In this document: one piece after another, positions 33,081 through 49,476 of the stretch
How the letters are laid out: each line of letters begins with the position of its first letter
How positions within the stretch are numbered: position 1 is the stretch's first letter
Position numbers and translations under genes: made by a program
Notes under the pieces: generated by a model
Told to the model about the DNA's origin: nothing
Database searches by the model: none
Seen by the model: only the letters and a program-made list of their open reading frames with translations
Origin: an uncultured Bacilli bacterium
GTDB taxonomy: Bacteria > Bacillota_I > Bacilli_A > RF39 > UBA660
Direction of reading: 5' to 3'
Assembly (NCBI GenBank): GCA_947598395.1
Contig: CANQFG010000001.1
Location: forward strand, 17,894 to 81,893
Length of the DNA: 64,000 nucleotides

Positions 33081-33110
33081 CTCTCCTATATTAAATTATA
33101 CCAACATATG

Positions 33111-33140
33111 TTTTTTTTAAATCAAAAAATGTGGCTATTG
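33111..33140 (-). terminator. Rho-independent terminator of the lipoprotein gene
   Basis: Minus strand ATGTGGTGTCAATAGCCACATTTTTTGAT. Confidence 0.6.
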
Positions 33141-33163
33141 ACACCACATATTGACAAATTGCT

Positions 33164-33610
33164 TTAATATGGCAATTCTTTAAGAATACTTTCGATCTCA
33201 CTGCGATATGATAATGGAGCTTCGACGTAGATATAGGTATTGTCGATCCACGAGACATAATAGTACTTATCCTCGGTCGTGCCCTCGAGGAATGTCCAAT
33301 TGTCTCCACCTAAGGTTCGCGGTTTATTATCTTCGCCTAATGCAGTATAGACATTCGTACACTCATCGACAAAAAGCCCTTCGACATCGTATTTGCGATT
33401 TCCTTCGATATAGGTAAAATTATAATTATCATCGACAATTTTATAAGCTGATTTTGCATAATCAAGACTCTCCGTATAGTCATATAATTGATAATTTAAA
33501 TTGCTCATCTTCGCGACAAATTCATCGCCACTTAATGCTTCTTTCGTCTTGCCACAGCCCGAAACCATGATGGTAAGAATTAAGATTAAAAATACTTTTA
33601 GCTTTTTCAT
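33164..33610 (-). CDS. Lipoprotein of unknown function
   Basis: Signal peptide with lipobox LTIMVSGC. Confidence 0.65.
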   Translation of the reverse strand: MKKLKVFLILILTIMVSGCGKTKEALSGDEFVAKMSNLNYQLYDYTESLDYAKSAYKIVDDNYNFTYIEGNRKYDVEGLFVDECTNVYTALGEDNKPRTLGGDNWTFLEGTTEDKYYYVSWIDNTYIYVEAPLSYRSEIESILKELPY

Positions 33611-33619
33611 AAACCCTCC

Positions 33620-34453: not shown

Positions 34454-34454
34454 T

Positions 34455-35550
34455 CTAATTCTTCTTTCTTAAATAGGCTTCGATAAAGCCATCGAGATCA
34501 CCATCTAAGACTTTATCAGGGGCATTCGTCTCATAATTAGTTCGCAAATCCTTGACTAAACTATATGGTTCCAAGACATAATTGCGGATTTGACTGCCAA
34601 AATCGATGGCAGCACTGCCCTTCAAGTTACTTATTTGTCGATTTCGTTCATTTAATTCACGTTGATATAGTTTACTCTTTAAGACATTGAGGGCGATTTC
34701 CTTATTTTTGATTTGACTGCGTTCATTTTGACAAGTGACAACGATCCCCGTAGGAATATGGGTAATGCGCACGGCCGAATCCGTCGTATTGACGCCTTGC
34801 CCGCCATTGCCACTGCTGCGATAGACATCGACGCGCAGATCTTCATCGCGAATGACGATATCTTTAACTTCAGAAAACTCGGGAATGACATTGACAGCAG
34901 CAAAAGAGGTATGGCGCCGGGCATTGGCATCAAAGGGCGAAATGCGAACTAACCGATGAACGCCAATTTCGCCTTTTAAATAGCCATAGGCATAAGGGTG
35001 CACGACATGAATCAAGACGCTTTTGATGCCCGCTTCTTCGCCGAGGAGTTTATCGATAATCGTATATTTCATATCGTGTTTATCGAAATACATCGTATAC
35101 ATGCGCAAGAGCATATTGGCCCAATCGCAAGCTTCCGTTCCCCCGGCCCCCGGGTGTATTTCCAAATAGCAATTGGCTTGATCATATTCGCCATCTAACA
35201 AAGTTTTGAGTTCTAAAGCTTCGAGGTCCGAAGTGATCGCTTGAAGACTCAAAGCGATGTGCTCTTTGATCTCATCATCACTTTCCAGTTTTAACAATTC
35301 GATAATTTCTAACGATTCGGTTATCTTTTCCGCCAATTCATGATAATCAGCCGTTTCTTTGCGCAAGGTAATCAATTCGTTATTGAGCTTATTAGCATAT
35401 TCTTGATCTTGCCATATGCCCTCTTGATTTAATTGCCTTTCCAATTCGGCAATCTTTTTTTCGATAACGGCAACGTCAAAGTAACCTCCCGATCGTCTGA
35501 AGACGCTCATTCAAATTTTGATATTTTTGCTCTAAATCACTTAGTTCCAT
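34455..35550 (-). CDS. prfB: Peptide chain release factor 2, expressed through a programmed +1 ribosomal frameshift at CTT TGA C (TGA at 35478..35476)
   Basis: RBS AGGTGATGG then ATG at 35550. The 0-frame reads MELSDLEQKYQNLNERLQTIGRLL then TGA, preceded by an internal SD GGGAGG. The +1 frame continues DVAVIEKK... through the GGQ motif (SGGAGGQ region) to the stop at 34455. Confidence 0.93.
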
Positions 35551-35611
35551 ACCATCACCTTTAGCATTATTCTACCATGGAAATTTTTTTTAGTAAATTA
35601 AAAGACAAAGA

Positions 35612-36529
35612 TTAACCATGACGGCCACCGCCACTGCTATGGCCACCGCCAGATGAACCCGAATGCGAGGAACCAGTCCCCGATCCACTGGAACTCGAAG
35701 CTTGCAAATGCGATACGGTATGCGTCGAAAATAACGTCACCAACCGCTTGGAGATATTTACCGTATCTTCATTGCGATAAACACTCGCTTGCGTGGCAGG
35801 CCGAACCAACTTATGATTGCCAATCATCACCATCAATGAAACGCCACTAATGACGCAGCCGACGAGAACGGCAATCAAAAATGGAGGCTCATATTTGCGA
35901 ACTAAAAAACCCATGTCATTTAAGTAATAATCATCCATTGTCTTAGGAACGCCTTGTAAGTAATAATCTAGGTAATCGGCAATAAATTTCTTGATGCCAT
36001 CACCATAAACCTTACTCGTAAAATAGGGATAAATATCATCTAACGCCCGATCAGCTCTTGTTGCATCATAATACAATTGGGCTTCACCAAACATGTAGAC
36101 GTTGTAATAGGGATCTTCCTCATAAGTATTGCGCAAAAGGAGAACGCCGCTATAATATTGATCGTCTAAACCAAAGTCATTATAGTCATAAAAATCAGCA
36201 GCATAATCCTCATTTTCCGAATCATCGCTATATGGCAAATTAACCGCTACCAAGACGAATTCCATGCCCGTCACATTCTTGAAATTCATAATTTCATCAT
36301 AGACACTTTTTTCCTCTTTATCATTTAAGATATTGGCAAAATCATATATTTTTTCGGAAGCATTGACTAGTGGCGTATTTAAGACGGCATCGCGATTCTT
36401 ATCATTGATTACCCACTTTTTATTGACGCCATAATTATTTTCCGCCGTCCGTTCAAAGACCAAGGTACTAGCTTCGACATGAAGGCTAAAGAAGCTAAAA
36501 ATTATAATTCCCAAAATAAACTTTTTCAT
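35612..36529 (-). CDS. TPM-domain (YgcG/TLP18.3-like) membrane protein with a Gly/Ser-rich C-terminal tail
   Basis: Signal peptide, a TPM-like domain, one TM helix and a C-terminal SSSSGSGTGSSHSGSSGGGHSSGGGRHG. Coupled by TAATG overlap to the upstream Zn-ribbon gene. Confidence 0.6.
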   Translation of the reverse strand: MKKFILGIIIFSFFSLHVEASTLVFERTAENNYGVNKKWVINDKNRDAVLNTPLVNASEKIYDFANILNDKEEKSVYDEIMNFKNVTGMEFVLVAVNLPYSDDSENEDYAADFYDYNDFGLDDQYYSGVLLLRNTYEEDPYYNVYMFGEAQLYYDATRADRALDDIYPYFTSKVYGDGIKKFIADYLDYYLQGVPKTMDDYYLNDMGFLVRKYEPPFLIAVLVGCVISGVSLMVMIGNHKLVRPATQASVYRNEDTVNISKRLVTLFSTHTVSHLQASSSSGSGTGSSHSGSSGGGHSSGGGRHG

Positions 36530-37599
36530 TATCCAACTCCTAAAAGATACAAGGCATAGGATATACCGATAGTTAAAGCAAATCCGAAAACAAAGAGCAA
36601 GATGGCATAGAGGATAGCTTTACCCTTATCAAAAGGAATATCGCCGACGAATTCGCCCGTTTGACCATTCATGGCAAAGAGATACATCTTATCCCGATAT
36701 TTGACATTGACCATCCATATGGGCAAGAGAACATATTGATGGGCATTTTTCAGTACTTGTAAAGCATTATTGGCAATCGTCTTATTTTGGTAAGCTCCCA
36801 TATCAGCATAGAGATAATCGATGGTACTATTCATGGCACGTTTCGTCGCATTTTCCAAAGTAATCGCGGCATCGACATCGTATTTTAAAGCATAATAGCC
36901 CGCCAAATAGGCATAATTATAGGGAACTAATTCGGCAAAATTAAATGGTTCAAGGCTATTCATCACTTCATCATCAAAGCGCTTAGAGCCATCCATGGGA
37001 ATCCGCTCATAAGTCATCGCCGCCTCATAATCAAATTTATAAATATCCGTTTTCGTATAAATATATTCGCCACTACTCCACGTCGTTATTAGAGTACCCA
37101 TTGTCGTTAAACTTCCACCGATTTGGATATCGTGAAGCCAAAAGGGAATATAGATACCCGTAATCTTAGCAATATTTTGCGCATTATTGAAGCTTTTGGG
37201 CATTAATGGTCGACCCTTAGATAATTTTTTTAATGCTCTTTGGGCATTTTCCTTAGGTATTTTAAAGGGAATAATATACGAAGGGGCAAATTGATTAGAT
37301 AGGCGATTTTGAAGAATTGAGGCATTGCCACAATAGGGACAAAAAGTAGCAGCCGTATTTTCATCGGCAATAATCTCAGCACCACAATTGGAACAATGGT
37401 AATTAATATAATTATCGAAATTATCTTGCACATTAGTATCGGCAATACTGCTGACATTTTTATGCTTTTGCAATTCTTCTAAAGTAAATTCGTTATCACA
37501 ATATTCACATTTCCATTTACTGAGTTGAGCATTATAAAAAATGGGAGCACCACAACAAGGACATTGACTATCTAATACTTTATTTGCCATATCTGTCAC
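36529..37599 (-). CDS. Double zinc-ribbon protein with a C-terminal TM helix
   Basis: CPCCG...CEYC and CSNCG...CPYCG motifs and a C-terminal hydrophobic helix. Confidence 0.55.
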   Translation of the reverse strand: MTDMANKVLDSQCPCCGAPIFYNAQLSKWKCEYCDNEFTLEELQKHKNVSSIADTNVQDNFDNYINYHCSNCGAEIIADENTAATFCPYCGNASILQNRLSNQFAPSYIIPFKIPKENAQRALKKLSKGRPLMPKSFNNAQNIAKITGIYIPFWLHDIQIGGSLTTMGTLITTWSSGEYIYTKTDIYKFDYEAAMTYERIPMDGSKRFDDEVMNSLEPFNFAELVPYNYAYLAGYYALKYDVDAAITLENATKRAMNSTIDYLYADMGAYQNKTIANNALQVLKNAHQYVLLPIWMVNVKYRDKMYLFAMNGQTGEFVGDIPFDKGKAILYAILLFVFGFALTIGISYALYLLGVG

Positions 37600-37700
37600 C
37601 TACTATAAAAAGTATAACAAAAAAAAGCGGCTTTTGCACCACCTTTATAATATAGTTTTTTTATTGATAATTAGTAAAATATTGTTATATATTAATATAT

Positions 37701-38084
37701 TTATTCTTTAATATTATCGAGATCTCCCTTTAAAGTAATAACTCCCCAACCCTCTAATTCATCGCGAAAGGGCTCATAGATATCATTTAACAAGTAGACC
37801 TTTTTTCCATAATAATAGCCAAAGGCAATCTCGGCAAAAGTATTAGGTCCAATATAATTTTGAATTCCCATTCGTTCTTCATTGACGATGAGAACGACTT
37901 CATTTAGACCATTGATTATCCGATCCAAATGGGCCTTTGAAGCTATCTCTTTACTTTTTCCTTCGAGACATTCGATGGGCAAGAGCACTTTATAGCCCCG
38001 ATCTTCCAATTCATCTTTGACTTTTAAAATCTTATCTTTAACTTTCATGCTTCCACATAAGACGATATTTACCACAAAAATCAC
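37701..38084 (-). CDS. Nucleoside 2-deoxyribosyltransferase-like (SLOG/Rossmannoid) small protein
   Basis: IVLCGS N-terminal motif and GPNTFAEIAFGYYYGKKVYLL, which resembles the DSGTAFELGYAYALGKPV catalytic-Glu block of NDT-family proteins. Confidence 0.5.
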   Translation of the reverse strand: MIFVVNIVLCGSMKVKDKILKVKDELEDRGYKVLLPIECLEGKSKEIASKAHLDRIINGLNEVVLIVNEERMGIQNYIGPNTFAEIAFGYYYGKKVYLLNDIYEPFRDELEGWGVITLKGDLDNIKE

Positions 38085-38197
38085 ACTTCTTTAATCGCTA
38101 TCATAATTAAATAGTTTGGTTACAAGTTACTATCTTAACACCAATCATTAATGGTTGCAATAATGAGTGCATCAAAGAAATGATTTTTATTTTTTAT

Positions 38198-39229
38198 CTA
38201 CTTTCTTCCACCTAATATTAACCTATTTGCCAAGCTATTCTTCTTAATAATTTGGATGAGCAAAAGGGATATGCCAATAATCAAAATGGTTATCAATATA
38301 CAAATTAAGTAATTTATGTTCTTTAGATCGTGACAAATATACGGAATAGCTAATTCCATAAAGAAACTTTGAATAATATAGATGCCAAGGGTATTTTGAC
38401 CTAGATAACTTAAAGCTTTTAAAATTTTAGAGTGTAGTTTCCCCATAACAGCCTTTACTAAGGACAAAGTAAGCAAAGAACCGACAAGCCCCATAATGAT
38501 GCGATAAAGGCCAATCGCTAATTGATAAAAATTAATAGCTATCTTTTGCGAGTTAATATTAATAATGGAAAAACCATTGCCATAAATATAGGCATCGCGA
38601 TTGTAAAATAATATTAAAATGTTAAAAAGTATGAGGCTTAGCAGTAATACTTGACCCCCCCCCAGTTGTAGTTTTTCAAGTAGACATAACTTGTTAATAA
38701 TATAGCCGATGAAAAAATAAATATAGATAAATTTGATATTATTAAGTCCGGCAAAATCAGGGAGAATAAAGATGAATAAAAATCCAAAAAGATAGATAAA
38801 TTTATTATCATTAAACTTTTTATTGACGATGCTAATTATGATACTGGAGAATAAAATAGCCCACAAGAACCAAAGAAAACTTAGAAAACTTTTAACCAAA
38901 GAGATATCGACATGAAGGATAAACTTACTTATAAGGAAATAGATAAGAGATGAAGTAAATATTGGTATAAATAATGTCGTAATTTTATTCTTAATCAATT
39001 CTTTTAAGTCATATTTTTTTAAAGAATAATAGAAAAGATAACCACTGATCAGAGCAAATAATGGCATATGAAAACTATAGATAATCTTAAATAGGGGATT
39101 ATCAAAATATATTTCATTAGTAAAATAATAATAACCACTACCATATTGAATACTATGTCCAAATACGACTAAGATTATCGTTAATCCTTTTAATATATCT
39201 AATACGCGATTTCTCTTTAATTCTTGCAT
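38198..39229 (-). CDS. Acyltransferase family 3 (OafA/Oac-like membrane O-acyltransferase) with an in-frame G9 tract
   Basis: N-terminus VLDILKGLTIILVVFGHS and about 10 TM helices. The G9 tract (plus-strand C9, 38655..38663) encodes LQLGGGQV. Confidence 0.8.
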   Translation of the reverse strand: MQELKRNRVLDILKGLTIILVVFGHSIQYGSGYYYFTNEIYFDNPLFKIIYSFHMPLFALISGYLFYYSLKKYDLKELIKNKITTLFIPIFTSSLIYFLISKFILHVDISLVKSFLSFLWFLWAILFSSIIISIVNKKFNDNKFIYLFGFLFIFILPDFAGLNNIKFIYIYFFIGYIINKLCLLEKLQLGGGQVLLLSLILFNILILFYNRDAYIYGNGFSIININSQKIAINFYQLAIGLYRIIMGLVGSLLTLSLVKAVMGKLHSKILKALSYLGQNTLGIYIIQSFFMELAIPYICHDLKNINYLICILITILIIGISLLLIQIIKKNSLANRLILGGRK

Positions 39230-39291
39230 ATTGTACTCCTTATCATTCCATGATTATGCATTTTTTAAACCTAATTATATTATATAATGTT

Positions 39292-40176
39292 TTATGAACC
39301 AATCAACTTATTTTCATTAACTTGGTTTTGCAATAATTCCAATTCTTTAAGACTTTTATTATCTTTTAAGGCATCTATTTGTCTTCTTGCGGAATTATTT
39401 AATCTAATAAGTCTTTCTCTTTGTGGAACTTTTTCCTCAATTAATTCGGCATTTGTATTTTCTAAATTATTTAATATTACTAAATGAAGCAAATCAGTAT
39501 AATCTCTTATATTGCCCTTTTCAGCTAGTTCGGGATTTCTTTCACGCCACTCTTTTGAAGTCATTCCAAATAACGCGACATTTAATACTTCGGCTTCTTC
39601 GGCATACACGAATTGTTTTTGCTTTTCAGTTAAAGTTGGAACTATGCATTTCTTTACTGCATCGGTATGAACAATATAATTAACTTTCGATAGAAGTCTA
39701 GTGGCACTCCACTCAACTTTATATTGATAAGCTTCGTTCGTTTTTAATCTTTCAAATTCCGTTATTAAATATAATTTAAATTCGGGTGATAACCAACTAG
39801 CAAATTCAAAAGCTATATCTGGATGGGCAAATGTACCTTTACTATATTTTCCACTACTTGGAATTATACCAATAGCATTAAAATTTTTCTTCCATCTATT
39901 CGGAGTCATAGTAAATCTATTGTATGGAACTTCTTCAGCTTTAATTCTGTGGGATTCCACGGAATTAAAATTTTCATTATTGATTTCTTCCCATAGACTA
40001 TAATAATCAAAAGAATTCTTATTAGACATCCAATTTCTAATTACTCCAGACGGATCTTCAGAATTTGTATATTTTGCTAAATCGGTCAAAGAAATATAAT
40101 TAACATTTCCTACCCGCATTATTCCAATTTTGTTTTCTTTTACAATAATTTCAGTTGTCACTATATTTGTTTTCAT
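39292..40176 (-). CDS. KilA-N domain-containing protein
   Basis: YISLTDLAKY...IRNWMSNKNSFDYYSLWEEINNENF...GTFAHPDIAFEFASWLSPEFKLYLITEFERLK is the typical KilA-N family block. The start (MKTNIV, RBS GGGGGA) is uncertain and the track ORF extends to 40233. Confidence 0.75.
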   Translation of the reverse strand: MKTNIVTTEIIVKENKIGIMRVGNVNYISLTDLAKYTNSEDPSGVIRNWMSNKNSFDYYSLWEEINNENFNSVESHRIKAEEVPYNRFTMTPNRWKKNFNAIGIIPSSGKYSKGTFAHPDIAFEFASWLSPEFKLYLITEFERLKTNEAYQYKVEWSATRLLSKVNYIVHTDAVKKCIVPTLTEKQKQFVYAEEAEVLNVALFGMTSKEWRERNPELAEKGNIRDYTDLLHLVILNNLENTNAELIEEKVPQRERLIRLNNSARRQIDALKDNKSLKELELLQNQVNENKLIGS

Positions 40177-40234
40177 TTTATTTTCCCCCATTTCCATTTC
40201 CATTACTTTTTTATCGTATTTCCCAATGTACAAC

Positions 40235-41254
40235 TCATTTGCTTTCTATACGATTTGTTTCATTTAATAATCTATCAAAATCCGATACATAATTTCTATC
40301 TTGTATAACTTTATATTTTTCATATTCATTTTCGGCTTTTTGTACTGCTTGTTTATGAGAAATTGTACCTTTTCCCTCTAATACATTATAATGAAAAACT
40401 TTTAGTGCATTTTCAACTTCTTTTTTCCAATCTTCCATATACATGGCAATATTTCTCTCCGCATTATTTTCAGCTATATCTAAAAATAAGTTCACTAAAT
40501 TATTTAAATTTTTAATTTCTTTTTCATCTAAATAATTTTTAGCAATAGTAATATCTGATTTCAGTATTTTACCATCAGGTGATTTTTCCCAATTGGTAAG
40601 CCCCATATTTTCTTTTGTCGAATCAACTCGGTTATAAACTATTTCGGCAGCAGTTTGTCCAGTAATGGCATAATGAAATTTATTTTGAATTGTTTTATAA
40701 AATTCCATTGCAATTTCATCATTTTTATCATAGTCTATTGAACATTCGGCAAAAATATCGGTGACTTTTTGATAAAACATTCTTTCACTTGTACGGATTA
40801 ATTTAATTCTTTCAAGTAATCTTTGAAAATATTCTTGATCTCTCTTGTTTGCTTTCATAAATCTTTCATCATTTAAAGCAAAACCTTGAATCATATAATC
40901 CTTAATTATTTTATTTGCCCAAGTTCTAAACTTGATGGCTTTTTTAGAATTAACTCTAAAGCCAATAGAGATAATCATATCTAAATTATAATACTTTGTA
41001 TTATAAGATTGTTTTCCATCATTACCCATATGTTCCATTTTGGAACATGTGCTTTTTTCTTCAAGTTCACCATCATTGTATATATTATTAATATGTTTAG
41101 TAATCGCTGGCCTTTTAACACTAAAAAGCGTTGCTAAAGCTTCGGTGTTTAGCCAAACATCTTCATTTTCAAGTAACACTTCTACCTTAATATTTCCTTC
41201 TTCATCATTATAAAATAAAATATTTTTTTCATTTCCGATCAATCTATCTTTCAC
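40235..41254 (-). CDS. rhuM: RhuM family virulence/defence-island protein
   Basis: NIKVEVLLENEDVWLNTEALATLF...YYNLDMIISIGFRVNSKKAIKFRTWANKIIKDYMIQGFALNDERF matches the RhuM N-terminal domain. Confidence 0.8.
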   Translation of the reverse strand: MKDRLIGNEKNILFYNDEEGNIKVEVLLENEDVWLNTEALATLFSVKRPAITKHINNIYNDGELEEKSTCSKMEHMGNDGKQSYNTKYYNLDMIISIGFRVNSKKAIKFRTWANKIIKDYMIQGFALNDERFMKANKRDQEYFQRLLERIKLIRTSERMFYQKVTDIFAECSIDYDKNDEIAMEFYKTIQNKFHYAITGQTAAEIVYNRVDSTKENMGLTNWEKSPDGKILKSDITIAKNYLDEKEIKNLNNLVNLFLDIAENNAERNIAMYMEDWKKEVENALKVFHYNVLEGKGTISHKQAVQKAENEYEKYKVIQDRNYVSDFDRLLNETNRIESK

Positions 41255-41303
41255 ACTTACACCTCCTCTAAAATTTTTCTTTTATATTAATATTTTAATA
41301 TAA

Positions 41304-41837
41304 TTATTTATTAACTAAAAACATCTTTAAATTATAAGAAGAATTTTTACTTTTCCTTCTATTGCAATCTTTGCACAGCATTTGCAAATTACTTTTGCCA
41401 AGCTCATCGCCAACATACATCCACGGAATTATATGGTCTAATTCTGATGAATCAAGATCAATATCTTTTTTACAAATATTACATTTACGACTTTGATTTT
41501 GTAGTAATTCAGATCTAATAGCTAAGTCATAAGATATTCGATGGTTATTCTTTGTAAAATATGCATAAAAATATTTATACATTAATTGGCTCTCGGCTTC
41601 GCTTAAACTACACTTTATTCTTTCAAACACTATCTTATGTGTTGTTAAAGCTTTGTCAGAACTGTTAAGAAATCTCTGCTTTACTTCCTTTTTATATTCA
41701 GAATCGCCCATCTCTTGAACCATCGTTTCAAAAATACTTATTAACAAACATTTATAGCTTTCATGCAAATATTTTTGAAGATCAATATTATTCCTTTCTA
41801 ATAAAGAGGTTATTGGTGTATCAACTACATCTATCAC
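41304..41837 (-). CDS. HNH endonuclease
   Basis: CNICKKDIDLDSSELDHIIPW...NLQMLCKDCNRRKS His-Me finger motif. Its start overlaps the stop of the DGQHR gene. Confidence 0.8.
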   Translation of the reverse strand: MIDVVDTPITSLLERNNIDLQKYLHESYKCLLISIFETMVQEMGDSEYKKEVKQRFLNSSDKALTTHKIVFERIKCSLSEAESQLMYKYFYAYFTKNNHRISYDLAIRSELLQNQSRKCNICKKDIDLDSSELDHIIPWMYVGDELGKSNLQMLCKDCNRRKSKNSSYNLKMFLVNK

Positions 41838-43021
41838 TATAATAAGCCACCTATTTGTTCGCTATTGACATAAGCTAACACTTTTTGAATATCACTTTTT
41901 GCTAATGCTATCGTTGCGCCTTCTCCTCTAAATGCTAAGCTTCTTTCGATAGTTTCTTCATTATCTTCGCCTTTATCATCACAAAAAACGCATTTAATAT
42001 TTTCAAGTTTTAAGGCCTCTGGATACTTGGAAATTAGATTTTTAAAATTGTCTTTTAACAATTTTTCTTTATTATTAATCAACTTATCACATATTTCTGG
42101 AAATACATACATTAAATATCTTAACCCACTTATTTTTGTAATAGTATCGGATTCAGGTTGTTGAAATGAAACATTAGATAATTCCTCCCACGCAGATAAG
42201 TAATTATCAATTATAATAACAAAATTATTAACGGCTTCTCTTTCATTTTGATAAACAGGAATAACTCTATTATCATAAAACTTTTTAACTCCATAAAGTT
42301 TAAATATTTTTGACATTTGAGTTTCCTTATATCCCTTTTTAATTTTATCCGCCCCAAACATTATTTTTTGATATAAAGGTGATGAACTTTCACGATTAAT
42401 AGCATCTAATAAGTCATAAGTTACTTCATCATCACCAATCAGCATTCCTAATGACTTTTTTATGTATCTTAAGAGATTTGTCTCAACCTTATCTTGCTTT
42501 TCATTAGTAACCATAAATAATTCTTTTCGCTCATTATCGGTTTGATTACTGAATACGGAAAAATTCATTTCGTAAATTATATTAGAATCAAAATTAGGAT
42601 CGATATAATCCTCATCAAAAGCGATAATACGATGTTGGCCATCTATAATTTCTAATTCATTTTCATGTTCGACAATTTCTTCTTCGGTTTCAGGAAACAT
42701 AATATAGTATTGTGTAATAGTTTTTTTTGTTCCATTTTCCTCTATAAATATTTCCTCACTTCGAACCTTTAGATCCCCTTTAACATTAATAATTGGTGAA
42801 TTAGGGATCAACCCTAATGACTTTTTATCCTCAATTTTTGTTTTTCCTGCAACATATTCACTAATTTCTCTTACTTTTTTCTCTATCCATGGTCGTTGAA
42901 CATCTTGCTTCTCTCCAGCAGTATATTTTCTTCTTAATTTTGCCACCATTCTTGGATCTGCAACCATAGAATAAAAATCTACGTCCTTTTGTTGAATTTT
43001 ATGAACTATAATTTTTTTCAT
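41837..43021 (-). CDS. DGQHR-domain protein (DndB-like, ParB/sulfiredoxin fold)
   Basis: ELEIIDGQHRIIAFDEDYI motif at 394 aa. Its own promoter TTGACA-17-TATATT and RBS AGGGAGAAG. Very AT-rich. Confidence 0.7.
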   Translation of the reverse strand: MKKIIVHKIQQKDVDFYSMVADPRMVAKLRRKYTAGEKQDVQRPWIEKKVREISEYVAGKTKIEDKKSLGLIPNSPIINVKGDLKVRSEEIFIEENGTKKTITQYYIMFPETEEEIVEHENELEIIDGQHRIIAFDEDYIDPNFDSNIIYEMNFSVFSNQTDNERKELFMVTNEKQDKVETNLLRYIKKSLGMLIGDDEVTYDLLDAINRESSSPLYQKIMFGADKIKKGYKETQMSKIFKLYGVKKFYDNRVIPVYQNEREAVNNFVIIIDNYLSAWEELSNVSFQQPESDTITKISGLRYLMYVFPEICDKLINNKEKLLKDNFKNLISKYPEALKLENIKCVFCDDKGEDNEETIERSLAFRGEGATIALAKSDIQKVLAYVNSEQIGGLL

Positions 43022-43044
43022 ACTCTTCTCCCTTCAATGCATAT

Positions 43045-43073
43045 AATATATCGTAAAAAGATTTTATTGTCAA
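43045..43073 (-). promoter_or_regulatory. SigmaA-type promoter of the DGQHR-HNH operon, overlapped by AGATCTT palindromic repeats
   Basis: Minus strand TTGACA ATAAAATCTTTTTACGA TATATT. The palindromes TAAGATCTTA, AAATCTTAT and TAGATCTTG lie at 43063..43125. Confidence 0.5.
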
Positions 43074-43295
43074 GATCTAATTTAATTTATTAAAAATAAG
43101 ATTTATTTAATAAGATCTTATTTTTAAGATCGTAATAAAGTTTGCCCACCCCGAAAGCATTTATAAAATTAACTTAGTTACACCTTATTTTTTCAAATTA
43201 ATTTTGGTTCTAGTTTTTATAATGGTTTATATTTTTTACACATTTAAAGCGTATTTGAACAATCATATTTTTACATTGCACAAAAATTGAATCAT

Positions 43296-43336
43296 AAAAA
43301 AAACTCGCAATCCCATTATTTATGGGATTTTGCGAG
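43296..43336 (-). terminator. Rho-independent terminator of secA (bidirectional hairpin)
   Basis: CTCGCAAAATCCCATAAATAATGGGATTGCGAG followed by an 8-nt U-run on the minus strand. Confidence 0.8.
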
Positions 43337-43337
43337 C

Positions 43338-45839
43338 TTACTTACCACAACAGTTCTTATATTTCTTACCAGACCCACAAGGACATGGATCGTTGCGTCC
43401 TACTTTCTTTTCATTTTTTATAGGAACGCTTTTGGCTTTTTGTTTGCCATCATTGGCTACCCCTTCCATTGGACGAGCTTGGAAATTTTGTTTGACCTCC
43501 ATCTTTAATAAGAACGTAGCAACGGAGGCATCAATGTTATCTTGCATCGCCTCAAACATCTCATAACCCTCAAGAGCGTAAGCTTGTAATGGATTATTTT
43601 GACCATAGCCGCGAAGGCCAATTCCTTCGCGAAGTTGATCCATATCGGAGATATGTTTTACCCACGCTTCATCAATTACACGAAGCGAAGTATGCTTTTC
43701 AAAATCGCGAACCAATTCTTCGGGAATAACCGCAATTTTTTCTTCATAATCATTGATAACGGCTTCACTGATAATCGCAAATACTTCATCATCGGTCTTG
43801 CCCTTTAAATCTTTAGCTTCTAATTTCGATTTTTTAACTAAATTATGATTGACCGTATCGACAATACCTTCTAAGTCACTGTCGGTTAAGTATCCTTCCG
43901 GTTCAATATGGGAATTGATCAAGGCATCGATGTGGTCCTTTATCATATCGAGAATGATTGGATGAATATCCTCAGTGTCGAGAATTTCATTGCGGCGTTC
44001 ATAAATAATCTTTCGTTGTTCGGATACGACGTTATCGTAATCAAGCAAATTTTTCCGCAAGTCATAGTTATTGCCCTCGACCTTCTTTTGAGCCGATTCG
44101 ACGGATTTGGTAAACATCTTGCTGCGAACTTGTTCCATTTCATCTAAGCCAAGCGATTGAACCATACCTTTGATACGATCAGCTCCAAATCGGCGCATTA
44201 AATCATCTTCAAAGGAAATAAAGAATTGGGAATATCCAGGATCGCCTTGACGACCAGCCCGACCACGCAACTGATTATCGATACGCCGCGATTCGTGTCT
44301 TTCCGTTCCGATGACACATAGGCCACCTAATTCGGCAACACCTTCGCCAAGTTTGATATCGGTACCACGACCAGCCATATTAGTAGCAATCGTAACGGCG
44401 CCCTTTTCGCCAGCTTTGGCTATAATTTCTGCTTCACGAGCATGGTTTTTGGCATTTAAGACCTCATGTTTAATGCCAACTTTTTCGAGCATCCGACTCA
44501 ATTTTTCATTTGATTCTACGGAGATCGTACCGACGAGAATAGGTTGTCCCGTAGCATGAATCTTTTTGATAAATTCGACGATAGCTTTATATTTACCCGC
44601 TTCCGTCGCATACATTAAATCGCTCATATCGACACGAATACAAGGTTTATTCGTTGGAATTTCGATAACATACATATTATAGATATCTCTAAATTCCTCT
44701 TCTTCGGTCTTAGCAGTTCCCGTCATACCGGAAATTTTAGCATACATTCTAAAGAGGTTTTGGAATGTAATCGTGGCCATCGTCCGCGTCTCTTCATTGA
44801 TCTTAACGCCTTCTTTGGCTTCAATAGCTTGATGCAAACCATCGGAAAATTGACGTCCTTCCATCAACCGACCGGTAAAAGGATCGACGATAACGACTTT
44901 TTCGGCCCCATCGACGACATAGTCGACATCGATTTTCATACCATAGTTGGCCTTTAAGGCTTGATTGATATGGTGAATGAGGATGGAGTTATCGACATCA
45001 TATAGATTTGTCAATTTAAAGTACTTCTCGATCTTTTTCGAACCAGCTTCGGTTAAAACGACACTTTTAGTCTTCGCATCGACGGTATAGTCATCTTCTT
45101 CGGATAATAATTTGACCGCCTTATCAGCTTCGACATAGAGATTAGCCGCATTGACCCGGCCTCCACTAATGATGAGTGGCGTCCGCGCTTCATCGATGAG
45201 CATCGAGTCAACTTCGTCTAAAATGACATAGTTTAAGCCCCTTTGAACGCGATCTTCAGGACGAACGACCATATTATCGCGAAGATAATCAAAGCCGATT
45301 TCATTATTTGTGGAATAGGTAATATCCGCATTATATACTTCCCTTTTAGCTTCGGGCGTCATATCATGCAAATTAACGCCAACGCTTAAACCTAAGAATT
45401 CATAAATTGGACGCATCCATTCGGCATTACGACTCGTCAAGTATTCATTGACGGTGACAACATGTACGCCCTTTCCCGTCAAAGCATTTAAATACGCCGG
45501 TAACGTCGTCGTAATAGTCTTACCTTCACCAGTTTTCATTTCGGCAATATTGCCAAAATGTAAGGCAAGGCCACCTAGTAATTGTACATAGTAAGGACGT
45601 TCACCGATCTTACGATAGGCAACCTCTCTAACTGCCGCAAAAGCGGGAACAATAATCGCCTCATCATTGATCGTCTTACCATTTTCGAGCTCTTTTTTTA
45701 AAGCATCAGTCGTACTGGCAAGTTCTTCATCACTCATGTGTGAATATTCATCTTCCAATGCGACGATCTTATCTGCAATCTTTTTAAATCTCTTTAATTC
45801 TTTATATTCGGTATCTATTAAACCTTTTAATATGCCCAT
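43338..45839 (-). CDS. secA: Preprotein translocase ATPase SecA
   Basis: 833 aa with DEAD-like motor motifs and a C-terminal Zn-binding CPCGSGKKYKNCCG. Confidence 0.97.
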   Translation of the reverse strand: MGILKGLIDTEYKELKRFKKIADKIVALEDEYSHMSDEELASTTDALKKELENGKTINDEAIIVPAFAAVREVAYRKIGERPYYVQLLGGLALHFGNIAEMKTGEGKTITTTLPAYLNALTGKGVHVVTVNEYLTSRNAEWMRPIYEFLGLSVGVNLHDMTPEAKREVYNADITYSTNNEIGFDYLRDNMVVRPEDRVQRGLNYVILDEVDSMLIDEARTPLIISGGRVNAANLYVEADKAVKLLSEEDDYTVDAKTKSVVLTEAGSKKIEKYFKLTNLYDVDNSILIHHINQALKANYGMKIDVDYVVDGAEKVVIVDPFTGRLMEGRQFSDGLHQAIEAKEGVKINEETRTMATITFQNLFRMYAKISGMTGTAKTEEEEFRDIYNMYVIEIPTNKPCIRVDMSDLMYATEAGKYKAIVEFIKKIHATGQPILVGTISVESNEKLSRMLEKVGIKHEVLNAKNHAREAEIIAKAGEKGAVTIATNMAGRGTDIKLGEGVAELGGLCVIGTERHESRRIDNQLRGRAGRQGDPGYSQFFISFEDDLMRRFGADRIKGMVQSLGLDEMEQVRSKMFTKSVESAQKKVEGNNYDLRKNLLDYDNVVSEQRKIIYERRNEILDTEDIHPIILDMIKDHIDALINSHIEPEGYLTDSDLEGIVDTVNHNLVKKSKLEAKDLKGKTDDEVFAIISEAVINDYEEKIAVIPEELVRDFEKHTSLRVIDEAWVKHISDMDQLREGIGLRGYGQNNPLQAYALEGYEMFEAMQDNIDASVATFLLKMEVKQNFQARPMEGVANDGKQKAKSVPIKNEKKVGRNDPCPCGSGKKYKNCCGK

Positions 45840-46072
45840 AATATAACCTCCATGTAATCTAATTTAATCCATTTATATATATTAACATATAATTTAAATA
45901 ATAATGTAAAAAAAAGCAAGTAATTTTAAACTTTTTCACATTACTACACAGCATAATTATATCACACTATCGAAATAAAACACTAAAAAAGTCGCGAATT
46001 AAGCTCTATTAAGGCAAATTAACGATGTATTATCCCTTTAGAACAACAAAAAAGGAACTCCCGTGAATCCCT

Positions 46073-46609
46073 TTATTTCGAATTTATAATTCCGTAATTG
46101 TTATCTTTCCGACGATATAATACCGATATGCAATCTTCATCAGCATTTTTAAATACGAAGAAATCATGACCGAGAAGATCCATTTGTAACATCGCCTCTT
46201 CTTCACTCATTGGCTTGGTCTCAATAGTCTTTCTCTTGACGATCCTTTCAACTTCGTTTTTTTCTTCATCACTTTCTTCAAAAGTAAACTCGGCAACTTC
46301 CGGCGTTTTATAACGATTCAAACGCGTCTTATTCTTGCGAATTTGCCGTTCCAAAACATCGATCACCAAATCGATAGCCGCATATAAATCTTGATTACTT
46401 TCCTCAGCTCGAAGCGTATACTTCGTCGTTGGAATAGTAACTTCAATAATTTGTTCGCCATTCTTAACCTTGACTAAGACATGGGCATCGATCTTACTTG
46501 GCTCTTCAAAATACCGATCTAAACGAACTAATTTTTCATTGACATAATTGCGGATTGCTTCAGTAATATCAATCTTATCTCCGCGAATATTTATATTCAC
46601 ACGAATCAC
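46073..46609 (-). CDS. hpf: Ribosome hibernation-promoting factor (long HPF)
   Basis: MIRVNINIRGDKIDITEAIRNYVNEKL S30AE domain plus a C-terminal dimerisation domain. The hpf-secA neighbourhood matches B. subtilis yvyD-secA. Confidence 0.9.
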   Translation of the reverse strand: MIRVNINIRGDKIDITEAIRNYVNEKLVRLDRYFEEPSKIDAHVLVKVKNGEQIIEVTIPTTKYTLRAEESNQDLYAAIDLVIDVLERQIRKNKTRLNRYKTPEVAEFTFEESDEEKNEVERIVKRKTIETKPMSEEEAMLQMDLLGHDFFVFKNADEDCISVLYRRKDNNYGIINSK

Positions 46610-46656
46610 CTTCCTACATTAATTATATCAAGGAAACGTGAATTATTAAAGTTATT

Positions 46657-46872
46657 TTACATTACTGGACTCATAACTTCTTGGGCAACTTCGACTGCTT
46701 GAAGACCTTTTACAGTTTCTACTAATTTAAAATTAACGATGTCGCCTTCATTTAATGTCTTGTAACCTTCTTTTAAAATAGCTGAATAGTGAACGAAAAT
46801 ATCTTCTAAATCACCACATTCGATAAAGCCATAACCTTTTTCGTTATTAAACCACTTTACCGTGCCTTGCAT
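46657..46872 (-). CDS. Cold-shock protein (CspA family)
   Basis: [21 protein letters not shown]1 motif. Extended -10 TGTATAAT upstream. Confidence 0.9.
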
Positions 46873-47021
46873 TACTTCCACCTTCTTCCTCTCAAACTAC
46901 ATGACCCATTATACAAGAAGAAAATTAAATAATTTGTCATATTGTGTCGAAGGATTAAAAAAATGTTAAATTTAGCAATATAGGCTCATTAAAGTTCATT
47001 TTAGACAAAAAAGTGCCACTT

Positions 47022-48239
47022 TTAGACAAAGAGATAGGTAATAAACGAATCAGATTGAATAAAAAAATCACATTTTATATTACAAGAAGTCAAATAACTA
47101 AGTCCTAAACCACTTTCTCTTTCCTTAGTCGAATAATTGAGCATTCCCAATTTATCCAAATCGAGTTCACTGTTAAAGCTATTGCTGATCTTTATTATGA
47201 TCTTATCCTGGCGATGAATATCGACACTTATAACGCGGGCTTTGGAATGCGTAGCGGCTTCAATAGCATTATCTAAGACGATGCCAATCGCTTCACATAT
47301 CTCTAAATATTTATGGGCATCTAAGGTATTAATATCGTCAATACTATCGTCATAGTTAAGATCGACAAAGACATTTTGACATTCAGCTAAGGAAAGTTTA
47401 GCATTGATTATTCCAATAATTCCCGTACCTTTCATCTTTATTAAGGGCGAGATTTCATAATTTAGTTTAAATTTTCGCATCATTAAATTGATCATTTCCT
47501 TAGTTTTATGAGCATCACTGGACTTAATTCCCAGTAAGTTATTAACTAAGTTATGGCGCATTAATCGATAATCATAGCTTATTTTATTATACTTATCTTT
47601 GAGGGCCTTATAATCTTCCATACTAATGCCTTCTTTACTTTGAATATATAAATCCATTCCCAAGATTAAAGTTATGATAGCCATCATGAAGACGATAAAC
47701 ATTATAATGGGCAAACGAATCAACATATCGACCCTTAATAAATAAGAGAAAATAAATTGCATGAATATTAAAATAATCGTTAACATCGACAAAAGATTAT
47801 CTTTATTATCTAAATGACGTCGTAATAACAAAAGAAATTTATAGACGCCATATTCCATCGGAATAATGGCAATCAATAAAAGCCCTAGACATTCGATTAA
47901 AAGTTGACTTTCATTAACATAAAATAATAGATATAGGGGCAATTTGACAATTAATAAACAGAGATAAAATAGTAAATTATTTATAAAGCAAATGCGGGCA
48001 CTTGCTTGATATATCAGCCTTATAAATAAAAAATCAAAAAAGATACGCATTAATATGAGTACGATACCATCTAAAAAGAAATAAATAAAGAGATAGAAAA
48101 ATCCAAAAAGGATAACGTAATAAATATAATACAAATGAAATTTAATTTTAAGATTATTTATTTTGGTACAATCATAATATCTCAAAAAGAGAAAAAAATA
48201 CATTTCGAGTAAGAAAAAGACATTTTTACTCATTCTCAA
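47022..48239 (-). CDS. HPK10-family (AgrC/ComD-like) sensor histidine kinase
   Basis: About 7 N-terminal TM helices, H-box MRHNLVNNLLG and a HATPase_c_5 block VLDNAIEAA...ESGLGLSY. A terminator AAAAGTGGCACTTTTTTG lies just downstream. Confidence 0.75.
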   Translation of the reverse strand: MRMSKNVFFLLEMYFFLFLRYYDCTKINNLKIKFHLYYIYYVILFGFFYLFIYFFLDGIVLILMRIFFDFLFIRLIYQASARICFINNLLFYLCLLIVKLPLYLLFYVNESQLLIECLGLLLIAIIPMEYGVYKFLLLLRRHLDNKDNLLSMLTIILIFMQFIFSYLLRVDMLIRLPIIMFIVFMMAIITLILGMDLYIQSKEGISMEDYKALKDKYNKISYDYRLMRHNLVNNLLGIKSSDAHKTKEMINLMMRKFKLNYEISPLIKMKGTGIIGIINAKLSLAECQNVFVDLNYDDSIDDINTLDAHKYLEICEAIGIVLDNAIEAATHSKARVISVDIHRQDKIIIKISNSFNSELDLDKLGMLNYSTKERESGLGLSYLTSCNIKCDFFIQSDSFITYLFV

Positions 48240-48939
48240 ACCTGAATTTTTTGGATAACATATCGACTCTTTCCATATTATCGAGAATAAAATATCCCTG
48301 TGCCCAATTATATAAATGAACTTTATCGGTATTTACGATACATGAGCGATGGACTTGTCTAAATCTTTCATCTAAAAAGGTAAGGATATCATTAAAATTT
48401 TTGGCAATTAAAAAAGTATTGCCACCACTCGTTTTAATAGCTAACTTGCGTTCAACAGTATCGCGATAGATATAATTTATCTCATCGAGATATATTTGAA
48501 AATTGACGCGATTATTGGCAAACGTCAACTTTCTCTTATCCCAATTTTTGGAAATTATTTTGCGGATATCCGCTCCTAAACGTTTGTCCATTGAATCAAA
48601 CTTTTCGATAAAATCAAAGACTTTATAGACGGAACGAAAAACTTTTTCAAACATCTTATCGTGACCAGTTAAATAAATTAATTCACTATCCCAATCATAT
48701 GAGCGAATATATTTTCCAATATCTAAACCGGATATAGCCGTACGAAATTCGATATCTAAGATATAAATTTTAGGAGTCTTGTCAGCAATAATTGTCTTTA
48801 GCTCATCGTTTAAACCATCAAATTCACGAATAACATAGTCGATATCTTTTTGAAACATTATTTTATTTATAATTTCTTTAACAAGCTTGCGGATTCTTTC
48901 GGAATCATCTACTAAGACATATGTTAGCATTTTCATCAC
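48226..48939 (-). CDS. LytTR-family response regulator (AgrA/ComE-like)
   Basis: Receiver domain YVLVDDS...YILDIEF and a C-terminal LytTR domain ...FRQVHRSCIVN. Overlaps the kinase gene by 14 nt. Confidence 0.8.
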   Translation of the reverse strand: MMKMLTYVLVDDSERIRKLVKEIINKIMFQKDIDYVIREFDGLNDELKTIIADKTPKIYILDIEFRTAISGLDIGKYIRSYDWDSELIYLTGHDKMFEKVFRSVYKVFDFIEKFDSMDKRLGADIRKIISKNWDKRKLTFANNRVNFQIYLDEINYIYRDTVERKLAIKTSGGNTFLIAKNFNDILTFLDERFRQVHRSCIVNTDKVHLYNWAQGYFILDNMERVDMLSKKFRFENE

Positions 48940-49050
48940 CTCGAATTATTGCTACACTACATAATAATAGTATATAGATTTTTATAAATCAAGGGAAAAA
49001 AAGCTATGACTAGTGAAATTTTTTGTGGATAACGAATATCATTTTCGTAA

Positions 49051-49476
49051 TTATTGCCGATTTAAACGTTCGAGATCGCGTTCTTTGATCGTCTCGCGTT
49101 TATCGTAGTTTTTTTTGCCCTTACATACCCCTAATAATATTTTTACTTTATTGCCTTTAAAATAGAGCTTTAAGGGGATTAAGGATATACCCTCGAGTTT
49201 TACTTCATTTTCAATTTTATGAATCTCTTGCCGATGTAATAATAACTTGCGGCTCCGTCGTTCTTCATGGTTAAAGCGATTGCCTTCTTCATATTTGGCA
49301 ATATACATATTGATTAAGTATACCTCATGATTTTTGACGCGCGCATAAGTATCATTTAGGCTAGCACTACCTTGGCGAATGGACTTTATTTCAGTACCCG
49401 TAAGGGCAATGCCGACTTCCAATTCCCGCAAGACATAGTAATCATAATAGGCTTTTTTATTTCTTATTTCGACCAT
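49051..49476 (-). CDS. smpB: SsrA-binding protein SmpB
   Basis: VEIRNKKAYYDYYVLRELEVGIALTGTEIKSIR. Start at the ATG with RBS AGGTGA, whereas the track begins at a GTG. Confidence 0.92.
   Translation of the reverse strand: MVEIRNKKAYYDYYVLRELEVGIALTGTEIKSIRQGSASLNDTYARVKNHEVYLINMYIAKYEEGNRFNHEERRSRKLLLHRQEIHKIENEVKLEGISLIPLKLYFKGNKVKILLGVCKGKKNYDKRETIKERDLERLNRQ

Follow-up and report, generated by a model that had tools for sequence, protein, structure and literature searches.

DUF262/ParB-like domains have been described as sensory NTPases by which nucleases are activated (PMC12065111, PMC4619093). In GmrS/GmrD, GmrSD, BrxU, SspE and TgvAB, a ParB/Srx nucleotide-binding module of this type is combined with a His-Me-finger nuclease, and these systems stand alone on defence islands, where (SspE excepted) they lack a cognate modification gene. 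The two parts can be encoded by separate genes, as in TgvAB (PMC11014532) and in GmrS/GmrD, which at their first description were two distinct proteins (PMC4619093). In Menshen, the ParB/DUF262-like protein NsnA is a proposed sensor that works with separate, polymorphic effectors. DndB, a protein of the DGQHR family, represses its own operon via palindromes in the promoter (PMC4507180), and this binding and repression are modulated by ATP.

The window analysed here, a stretch of 64,000 nucleotides from an uncultured Bacilli bacterium, carries on its minus strand two genes that combine elements of these systems. The first (41837..43021) codes for a 394-aa DGQHR-domain protein containing LEIIDGQHRIIAF, and the second (41304..41837) for a 177-aa HNH endonuclease containing CNICK...LDHIIPW...CKDCNRRKS. 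The two meet at a translational-coupling junction (41835..41852, minus strand), in which the TAG stop of the DGQHR gene (41839..41837) and the GTG start of the HNH gene (41837..41835) overlap by one base, with an AGGTGG Shine-Dalgarno sequence at 41852..41847. This GTG start is credible because homologues share its position, and the junctions in related loci are equally tight, with an 11-nt overlap at one extreme and gaps of a few nt, seen in several loci, at the other. Both open reading frames and their overlap at 41837 are thus as the original prediction had described them.

Within the 394-aa protein, a ParB/sulfiredoxin (Srx)-like N-terminal core is followed by a helical domain. The protein scores above the cut-off of the DGQHR profile TIGR03187 (68.9 bits against 58.85), with residues 7-310 aligned to positions 2-275 of the 276 in the profile. 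Using the definitions of the QR, FxxxN and D-G-Q-x-R motifs given in PMC4619093, we located all three in the core (Q42-R43, D127-G-Q-H-R131 and F169xxxN173) and found each to be invariant among 22 homologues. After the generic DGQHR domain, the best named match in both PADLOC and NCBIfam is DpdB, although the score against the DpdB equivalog NF041060 is 39 bits (residues 12-321) versus a cut-off of 300, and that against the dnd-associated DGQHR profile 28.8 versus 450. For DndB itself (PF14072), the window protein falls below the gathering threshold (20.7 bits against 29.1, N-terminal half only); 21 of its 22 relatives match this family at E <= 1, with a best value of 1.5e-12, and the protein shares with DndB both its DGQHR domain family and an overall layout over about 310 residues. 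As judged from these profile comparisons, the DGQHR protein sits in a clade that also holds DndB and DpdB, its nearest relatives. A search of PDB sequences with the family profile returned nothing at E <= 1. An HEPN RxxxxH motif has been reported in the C-terminal region of DndB (PMC3632139); a candidate for such a motif in the DGQHR protein was rejected, as the homologue alignment contains no conserved His after R301.

The partner protein matches the canonical HNH family PF01844 at 42.3 bits (cut-off 21.4; E 8e-11), together with PF14279 and PF13395. Its zinc-ribbon HNH domain occupies residues of about 105-177, within which the catalytic and zinc residues C119, C122, D134, H135, N150, C155, C158 and N159 are invariant across 20 homologues. 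An AF2 model of the protein (pLDDT 89.9) was used in Foldseek searches, which recovered the HNH domain of Cas9, the Gme HNH nickase, Cap5 and PtuB at probabilities of 0.97-1.0. These data identify the 177-aa protein as a genuine zinc-ribbon HNH endonuclease whose predicted active-site residues are intact and, together with the analysis of its partner, lend support to the expected folds of both proteins (ParB/Srx-like for the first and HNH for the second). The first 100 residues make up a five-helix domain specific to the family, and a Pfam search with residues 1-113 gave no match; this N-terminal helical domain is probably an adaptor that docks the nuclease onto the DGQHR protein. In PADLOC, the nuclease had weak matches to PtuB and PDC-M01B (E 2e-7 to 1e-4; PtuB best at 2.4e-7), and its other matches there were generic ones to type II restriction enzymes. 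PtuB is also a structural neighbour, but similarity to PtuB and PDC-M01B is limited to the generic HNH core and, unlike Septu and PDC-M01, the pair has no PtuA or PDC-M01A ATPase; the nuclease is instead teamed with the DGQHR protein, and ATPases are not conserved alongside it.

The pairing of the two genes recurs well beyond the window: of the 55 related loci that could be assessed, 50 have them side by side, although many of the loci are closely related to one another and so do not represent independent events. Gene order is swapped in two of the 50 adjacent loci and in a further lineage, reached from the HNH side and lying outside the 55-locus tally, which brings the swapped lineages to three. 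Across loci, identity to the window protein is tightly correlated between the two partners (Spearman 0.97). No third conserved gene was found, either by clustering of the first 26 loci or by Pfam annotation or tblastn checks of the later ones. Furthermore, no dnd, dpd or ssp genes were seen nearby in more than 50 loci, so that the pair is not embedded in dnd/ssp clusters and its description as a stand-alone two-gene module is borne out. In one Lachnospiraceae relative, a single locus that the original prediction had missed, a TIR_2 protein takes the place of the HNH nuclease.

The operon is preceded by a sigma-70-type promoter, TTGACA-17-TATATT (43045..43073, minus strand), with the -35 element at 43073..43068, a 17-nt spacer and the -10 element at 43050..43045. 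At 11 of 12 consensus positions it is the top match within 39000..43400, and it is followed by an AGGGAG ribosome-binding site (43033..43028) 6 nt ahead of the ATG at 43021. Equivalent TTGACA-type promoters precede the operon in related loci. Around this promoter lies an unstranded candidate operator array (43056..43135). The two AGATCT palindromes that had been noted as flanking the promoter are present, the first at 43073..43078, overlapping the -35 element by one base, and the second at 43113..43118, at the centre of a 14-bp palindrome, AATAAGATCTTATT (43109..43122). The array also includes a GATCTT half-site (43126..43131) and a degenerate AAAATCTTT copy within the promoter spacer. A second cluster of AGATCT sites in the window (9550, 9589 and 9683) was taken to be due to chance, being found inside the pheT coding sequence and without A/T-rich flanks.

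We found these palindromes to have counterparts in related loci. In most loci the promoter is overlaid by a palindrome of the TTTAGATCTAAA type, and this holds also for genomes of 60-66% GC and for operons with swapped gene order. The motif (A/T)TT(A/T)AGATCT(A/T)AA is repeated two to four times around the promoter in related loci belonging to several phyla, upstream of whichever gene is first in the operon. Upstream of the operons, AGATCT has a density of 12.7 per kb, versus 0.22 per kb elsewhere in the loci, corresponding to 41 observed sites against 0.7 expected (about 57-fold enrichment). The site is found upstream in 34 of the 55 loci, while only some of the remainder (about 40%) have an alternative palindrome; in another clade, a different repeated palindrome, ACGTACATAT / TACGTATACGTA, is found at the same place. 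A comparison of DGQHR proteins from the AGATCT- and ACGTAC-operator clades yielded only two weak separating positions (V179I and E367G) and no pointer to a recognition helix. The AGATCT operator is retained both in L011, where the HNH gene has been replaced, and in L012, where it has been lost, which suggests the DGQHR protein as its putative binder. In addition, a conserved palindrome covering the promoter points to autorepression by this protein, as with DndB, whose regulation of its own promoter the candidate operator fits, although the operator sequences differ and, as a further difference from DndB, the partner here is a nuclease. Thus the AGATCT palindromes, the significance of which was overlooked in the original prediction, constitute by their sequence conservation a candidate operator that moves with the cassette.

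The genomic setting of the pair is often that of a defence island. The window locus lies, as originally described, in an AT-rich block (GC 0.24-0.33 across 38000..43500, compared with 0.39-0.45 in secA) beside RhuM/PDC-S05 and KilA-N/PDC-S22 genes. At other loci, neighbours include Lamassu LmuB_C, Mrr-NACHT with Cap4, Abi_2, Fic, an SLFN-type helicase, HsdR, Bunzi BnzAB and an OLD/GajA-like protein, with a type I restriction-modification system near the pair at another locus; weaker, domain-level matches were to mad2 (MADS; E 3.5e-17) and Shedu SduA (E 3.9e-10). Some loci of the pair sit among housekeeping genes. No tRNA or tmRNA gene, which might have marked an integration site, lies within 30000..56000 of the window, and a tmRNA-like 3' end spotted by eye upstream in L041 was discarded, as ARAGORN made no call there. 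The pair is rare and patchy in distribution: clustering at 50% identity gives about 60 groups among 1.84 billion representatives. As a unit of about 1.7-2 kb with its own promoter, it occupies many different chromosomal sites, and the cassette is mobile between bacteria together with its own candidate control site.

Taken together, we consider it reasonably probable that the pair is a self-contained, self-regulated nuclease cassette, most likely directed against phages or other invading DNA. We propose that the DGQHR protein is a putative NTP-binding DNA sensor and autorepressor. Probably as a dimer, it would bind the TTTAGATCTAAA-type palindromes over its own promoter and so keep expression of the operon low and constant, a step suggested by the conserved operator and the precedent of DndB. 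Translational coupling would then deliver the two proteins in a fixed proportion, from which they may form a complex. Within it, the ParB-like module would act as an NTP-dependent DNA sensor or switch that, on recognising foreign DNA, licenses the HNH nuclease to nick or cut, by analogy with GmrSD, BrxU, SspE and NsnA of Menshen. The pair differs from Menshen in having only two genes, with no ABC ATPase (NsnB), and a ParB-like protein of a different clade; the polymorphic effectors of that system nonetheless recall the replacement of HNH by TIR. A point against this explanation is that the pair has no linked modification gene by which self DNA would be spared.

The original prediction had cast the pair as a split GmrSD/SspE-like module. 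By homology this does not hold: neither window protein matches PF03235 (DUF262/GmrSD_N) or DUF1524 (PF07510) at E <= 0.1, and the DGQHR protein has no PF03235 match even at E <= 1. Since the motif is DGQHR and not DGQQR, the nuclease is a canonical HNH and not DUF1524, and the nearest relatives are DndB and DpdB, the pair is not a homologous GmrSD or SspE. The nuclease has a CxxC...CxxC motif arrangement and a novel N-terminal domain, and the conserved palindromic candidate operator over the promoter is a further difference from the GmrSD group. On the other hand, all the features listed above for that group are found here too, including the D-G-Q-x-R phosphate-binding motif with QR and FxxxN. 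On sequence grounds, the pair is therefore best described as analogous to GmrS/GmrD and outside that family, and by the same analogy it may represent a variant of the defence theme in which a ParB-like NTPase is coupled to a His-Me nuclease. The suggestion that it belongs to no named system stands, in that no PADLOC-DB 2.0 system model is matched by both proteins (the DGQHR protein giving only weak DpdB/DndB matches) and no described system matching a DGQHR + HNH pair emerged from the literature searched; its encoding as two polypeptides, by contrast, is not new.

The strongest alternative, which we nevertheless consider unlikely, is type IV modification-dependent restriction, in which the DGQHR subunit would read modified phage DNA and hydrolyse NTP, and the HNH nuclease would cut modified DNA only. 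Such an activity, for which hmC, glucosyl-hmC, hmU and phosphorothioate are example modifications, would be a special case of the main explanation and one mechanism among several that are possible. It would account for the dispensability of a protective modification gene, and the conserved neighbourhood includes no methyltransferase, dnd or dpd gene; the overall logic is shared with GmrS/GmrD, BrxU and TgvAB (PMC4619093, PMC11014532), and six of 22 family members have weak GmrSD_N matches (best 0.005). Against this reading, and in addition to the motif and domain differences already described, no modified-base reader domain (SRA, SBD or HARE-HTH) was detected, enzymes of this type are not typically under tight autorepression, and the TIR effector of one relative suits abortive signalling better than direct restriction.

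A TIR effector would also be compatible with a toxin-antitoxin-like or abortive-infection module, a reading to which we assign a somewhat lower probability still. Here, the HNH protein would be a toxin restrained by the DGQHR protein, which would double as operon repressor in the manner of a type II antitoxin. Infection or loss of the cassette would in that case release the nuclease onto the cell's own DNA. A bicistronic, translationally coupled operon with palindromic candidate operators over its promoter is what such a module would look like; L012 has a DGQHR gene on its own, whereas a solitary HNH of the family was not seen in the loci examined, the HNH sequence changes more rapidly than that of its partner (58% versus 80% identity in one example), and Makarova et al. 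link DndB-type proteins with Abi and toxin-antitoxin systems (PMC3632139). However, at 394 aa and with an invariant nucleotide-binding motif, the DGQHR protein is unlike classical labile antitoxins; its predicted structure has high pLDDT throughout, with no protease-sensitive or disordered region evident, and gene order is reversed in three lineages.

Compatible with autorepression, but more speculative again, is the notion that the DGQHR protein is a ParB/KorB-style NTP-gated clamp whose short palindromic loading site is at the same time the operator of the operon that encodes it. KorB and ParB are CTP-dependent DNA clamps that bind short palindromes and repress promoters, and the KorB operator TTTAGCGGCTAAA has TTTAG/CTAAA half-sites in common with TTTAGATCTAAA, which may be a coincidence; unlike KorB and ParB, the pair has no partition genes, and the resemblance to them ends with the fold, no sequence homology being detectable. 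Were this the case, foreign DNA, infection-changed NTP pools or a phage protein would remove the clamp from the operator or switch its state, and this one step would at once relieve repression of the operon and bring in or switch on an interchangeable HNH or TIR effector in trans. This would be a new immunity logic, with a ParB-type clamp serving as sensor, repressor and effector licence, and would provide the first function for DndB-clade proteins outside DNA-modification operons.

Two further explanations have very little to recommend them. That the pair is an accessory or regulator of a Dnd or Dpd pathway encoded elsewhere in the genome, or a housekeeping repair nuclease with its regulator, is highly improbable: DndB and DpdB are the nearest named relatives of the DGQHR protein, but the scores against the DpdB and dnd-associated profiles fall far short of their cut-offs, no dnd or dpd gene (dpdA and dndCDE/A included) lies within 4 to 10 kb of any family-level locus, no PAPS-reductase-like, ABC ATPase-DndE or tRNA-guanine transglycosylase-like neighbours were seen at related loci, and the distribution is patchy, island-borne and rare. 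Just as improbable is a selfish homing-endonuclease cassette that cuts empty target sites and is maintained with the aid of the ParB-like protein, for while the HNH fold is common among homing enzymes and the cassette, with its own promoter, is found at many chromosomal sites, intron, intein and phage contexts are all absent, insertion sites vary between loci with no flanking repeats noted, the association with defence islands is strong, and tblastn with the DGQHR protein gave no match among 50,697 phage and 72,556 plasmid records and hence no evidence of carriage by sequenced phages or plasmids.

If confirmed, the self-regulated defence cassette that we favour would be a compact system against phages in which a ParB-like protein of the DndB clade is combined with an HNH nuclease, and which occurs in gut Firmicutes as well as in other phyla. 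The DGQHR clade would thereby acquire a function independent of the dnd and dpd operons for DNA modification, and the principle by which a ParB-like NTPase licenses a His-Me nuclease would extend beyond DUF262 and DUF1524. The candidate operator TTTAGATCTAAA is unusually clear and offers a direct experimental handle, and the natural swap of HNH for TIR suggests a sensor-plus-effector layout, which could help to find what the ParB-like module senses.

The DGQHR gene (41837..43021, minus strand) encodes a 394-aa protein containing LEIIDGQHRIIAF, and the HNH gene (41304..41837, minus strand) a 177-aa protein containing CNICK...LDHIIPW...CKDCNRRKS, as described in the original prediction. The two genes overlap stop to start in the manner predicted, with the TAG of the first (41839..41837) and the GTG of the second (41837..41835) having a G in common. 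The Shine-Dalgarno sequence AGGTGG lies 10 nt 5' of this GTG on the minus strand, and the start is credible because homologues begin at the identical position. The proposed consensus promoter on the minus strand (TTGACA at 43073..43068, a 17-nt spacer and TATATT at 43050..43045) proved to be the top-scoring match within 39000-43400, at 11/12 positions. One AGATCT copy (43073..43078) adjoins its -35 element, and a second (43113..43118) forms the centre of a 14-bp palindrome, AATAAGATCTTATT. The AT-rich character of the block was likewise evident, with 24-33% GC across 38000..43500 as compared with 39-45% in neighbouring secA; this low-GC island begins directly after a terminator-like hairpin (43329..43309, minus strand) 3' of secA. 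Downstream of the pair lie RhuM and KilA-N genes (39292..41254, minus strand), whose identities were supported by matches to the PADLOC candidates PDC-S05 (4e-134) and PDC-S22 (1e-105). Since the 49-nt gap between the HNH stop and the RhuM start holds no terminator-like hairpin, these genes may be co-transcribed with the pair in the window; they are not conserved as neighbours at other loci.

The domain identities of both proteins are established and their active sites are intact. The DGQHR protein passes the NCBIfam model TIGR03187 over residues 7-310 (68.9 bits, cut-off 58.85), falls far short of the DpdB model (39 bits against 300) and of the dnd-associated DGQHR model (28.8 bits against 450), and scores under the Pfam DndB gathering threshold (20.7 against 29.1). 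Its only PADLOC matches are weak ones to DpdB and DndB. Pfam DndB matches were found in 21 of 22 homologues, and weak GmrSD_N matches in 6 of the 22. A QR pair, the DGQHR pentapeptide and FxxxN characterise the DGQHR domain (PMC4619093), and all three are kept, Q42-R43, D127-R131 and F169...N173 being invariant among the 22 homologues. The C-terminal 200 residues are helical and, as the DGQHR and DpdB profiles reach to about residue 320, this helical part is common to DndB and DpdB. An equivalent helical domain follows the ParB-like core in DndB, GmrSD, SspE and NsnA, and the dimer has a charged groove that is conserved (PMC12065111). A HEPN-type R-x4-6-H motif in the DGQHR protein was rejected as a candidate feature, being not conserved across homologues.

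The second protein is a canonical HNH nuclease, in agreement with the original call (PF01844, 8e-11). The HNH homologues all keep its catalytic residues D134-H135, N150 and N159 and its zinc-binding cysteines C119, C122, C155 and C158. The predicted model (pLDDT 89.9) resembles Cas9 HNH domains, a Geobacter HNH nicking enzyme, CBASS Cap5 and PtuB, with probabilities of 0.97-1.0. Residues 1-100 form a five-helix domain for which there was no Pfam match.

The two genes are obligately adjacent and co-diverge. We assembled 26 loci from a one-genome-per-species scan and 40 more from JGI metagenomes, adding further loci by looking up single homologues; 55 loci having a family-level DGQHR gene and sufficient flanking sequence could be assessed. 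An HNH homologue lies directly downstream of the DGQHR gene in 48 and directly upstream in 2, which gives an adjacent HNH gene in 50/55 loci. A TIR-domain gene takes its place in one locus, and neither partner was found in the remaining four, which include one real orphan, one 96-residue partial match and one fragment. When a divergent HNH homologue (P0167) was taken as the starting point instead, its neighbour again proved DndB-like, the HNH gene coming first; this is a third lineage with swapped order. Junctions are tight in all loci: at most the genes lie a few nucleotides apart, and at the other extreme they overlap by 11 nt. Across loci, the two proteins' identities to their window counterparts are strongly correlated (Spearman 0.97, and 0.94 for loci below 50% identity), and clustering of all neighbouring ORFs yielded no third conserved gene. 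HNH is always the more diverged partner (56-60% identity to the window pair versus 80% for DGQHR, for example in L001-L008), possibly through relaxed constraint or through an arms race with inhibitors. Across paired loci, HNH divergence is greatest in the N-terminal domain.

The family is small, with about 60 clusters (50% identity) at E <= 1e-30 among 1.84 billion representatives; full-length members match at about 1e-38 or better, other DGQHR proteins at 1e-23 or worse. Among its hosts are Bacilli, Clostridia, Negativicutes, Actinobacteria (Eggerthellaceae, Aeriscardovia) and one spirochaete; there was no match in 50,697 phage or 72,556 plasmid records. The survey also met a distant DGQHR protein (22-24% identity) in Nitrospirota and Brocadia MAGs (L022:3979-11427 and L026:4074-11616), within a conserved seven-gene cluster that includes two paralogous 340-aa proteins, a 135-aa protein, a SNF2-family helicase, a metallo-beta-lactamase-fold protein and a radical SAM protein. 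This is a different system from the pair, and possibly an uncharacterised one.

The cassette moves together with its promoter-operator and resides in defence islands. Two Bacillus assemblies (named B. thuringiensis) have the pair next to either Mrr_cat-NACHT and Cap4 or a Lamassu LmuB_C with MC3 and CTD7 domains; elsewhere it adjoins Abi_2, Fic, a SLFN-type helicase and HsdR, and in another locus a complete type I restriction-modification system. Bunzi BnzA and BnzB were also found nearby (E-values 1e-190 and 4e-189), together with weaker, domain-level neighbour matches to MADS mad2 (3.5e-17) and Shedu SduA (3.9e-10). In three closely related Bacilli loci (L003:9801-11039, L004:8491-9729 and L005:9757-11037) HNH is directly followed, on the same strand, by a gene for an OLD/GajA-like ATPase of 412-426 aa (PADLOC Old 2.6e-18), which is not conserved at other loci. 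That such defence-island settings recur independently is what chiefly argues for a defence role. The pair also occurs in two housekeeping settings, the pcrA-recU interval and beside mraZ. In the window the order is secA, the pair, RhuM and KilA-N, and the pair is again downstream of secA in two related Bacilli MAGs (L002, L006); because the genes intervening between secA and the pair differ among these genomes, the site looks like a variable insertion hotspot. At another locus, the segment just 5' of the cassette (L041:3740-3800) ends in GGTTCGACTCCCCCCGCCTCCACCA and resembles the 3' end of a tmRNA/tRNA gene, the kind of site where islands classically integrate; ARAGORN called no tmRNA/tRNA gene there.

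The AGATCTT palindromes, mentioned only in passing in the original prediction, proved to be conserved as part of the cassette. This candidate operator has the consensus (A/T)TT(A/T)AGATCT(A/T)AA and occurs in 2-4 copies, spaced by about 13-15 or 26-29 bp, to either side of the -35 element and frequently within the promoter spacer. In the first 22 loci, the 3,229 nt preceding the operon contain 41 copies of AGATCT, versus 72 copies in 325,878 nt elsewhere (12.7 versus 0.22 per kb; 0.7 expected, Poisson P ~1e-56), a count that close relatives inflate. At least one copy lies within 150 nt in 34 of the 55 assessable loci, and at least two in 24. The operator is kept in genomes of 60-66% GC (L012, L014, L019, L020), where the promoter region is an AT-rich islet, and it recurs in Bacillus infantis, an Eggerthellaceae MAG, Clostridium hominis and a spirochaete MAG. 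Across the whole window AGATCT is not enriched (14 copies, 18.8 expected); a cluster of three sites in 140 bp at 9550-9688 was discarded as an operator, since it lies inside pheT without A/T-rich flanks and is probably due to chance.

In all three swapped-order lineages the operator lies upstream of HNH, there the first gene. It is also kept in L012, an orphan DGQHR locus, and in L011:709-2311 (Lachnospiraceae MAG JAFUMF010000044.1), where the DGQHR homologue (43% identity) is overlapped at its end by a TIR_2 gene (2.8e-13, above the Pfam threshold) and HNH is absent. The DGQHR protein is therefore the sole candidate binder common to these loci. The replacement of HNH by TIR matches the familiar scheme in which effectors are exchanged and the sensor is conserved, at a single locus, the metagenome set holding no further TIR partners. 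A human-gut clade (L047-L052, L062-L063) has no AGATCT and carries at the same place four ACGTACATAT-like copies, including the palindrome TACGTATACGTA; in L047, L048, L049 and L063 these repeats lie around the promoter, about 60-190 nt upstream of the DGQHR start. L045 has TATACGTATA. Comparison of these sites suggests that the operator changes along with its regulator, as co-evolution would produce. Salmonella DndB represses its own promoter by binding two TACG-N10-CGTA palindromes there (PMC4507180), and the core of the human-gut clade's alternative operator resembles those sites. The outer half-sites TTTAG/CTAAA of the KorB operator, TTTAGCGGCTAAA (PMC11790492), are identical to those of the AGATCT operator, a likeness that we regard as a curiosity and not as evidence.

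In functional terms, the pair has its nearest known counterparts in GmrS/GmrD and related systems. The proposed split GmrSD/SspE-like module stands as an analogue built from sister families; it is not a member of the GmrSD family, because it lacks both defining features, DUF262 with DGQQR and DUF1524. Nor are separate polypeptides a novelty, two-gene encoding being already known for this theme (PMC4619093, PMC11014532). Homology places the first protein with DndB and DpdB, whose operon partners are absent and whose model cut-offs it does not reach; no dnd or ssp genes were seen near related loci, and no dpd genes either. The pair matched no system in PADLOC-DB 2.0, our full-text literature search returned no two-gene DGQHR/DndB-like plus HNH anti-phage module, and the relevant passages of the most pertinent comparative papers do not mention it. 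Within these sources it is, as the original prediction had it, not a named system, a recent naming being conceivable.

On balance, we lean modestly towards an autoregulated sensor-plus-nuclease defence module. The DGQHR protein would bind the palindromes and repress its own operon, and would form a complex with the HNH protein, probably via the HNH N-terminal domain. NTP-driven DNA sensing with nuclease licensing has been described for the DUF262 proteins GmrSD, BrxU and SspE and proposed for Menshen NsnA (PMC4619093, PMC12065111); by analogy, the ParB-like module may sense DNA by NTP binding or hydrolysis and so license the nuclease. Candidate triggers are modification-dependent recognition, as in type IV restriction, activation solely during infection, as in an abortive or TA-like system, and clamp-type loading onto particular DNA. 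The overall logic is one that specialists would foresee; the pair represents a rare yet clean candidate system, whose cis-regulatory handle is unusually clear and in which an effector swap has arisen naturally.
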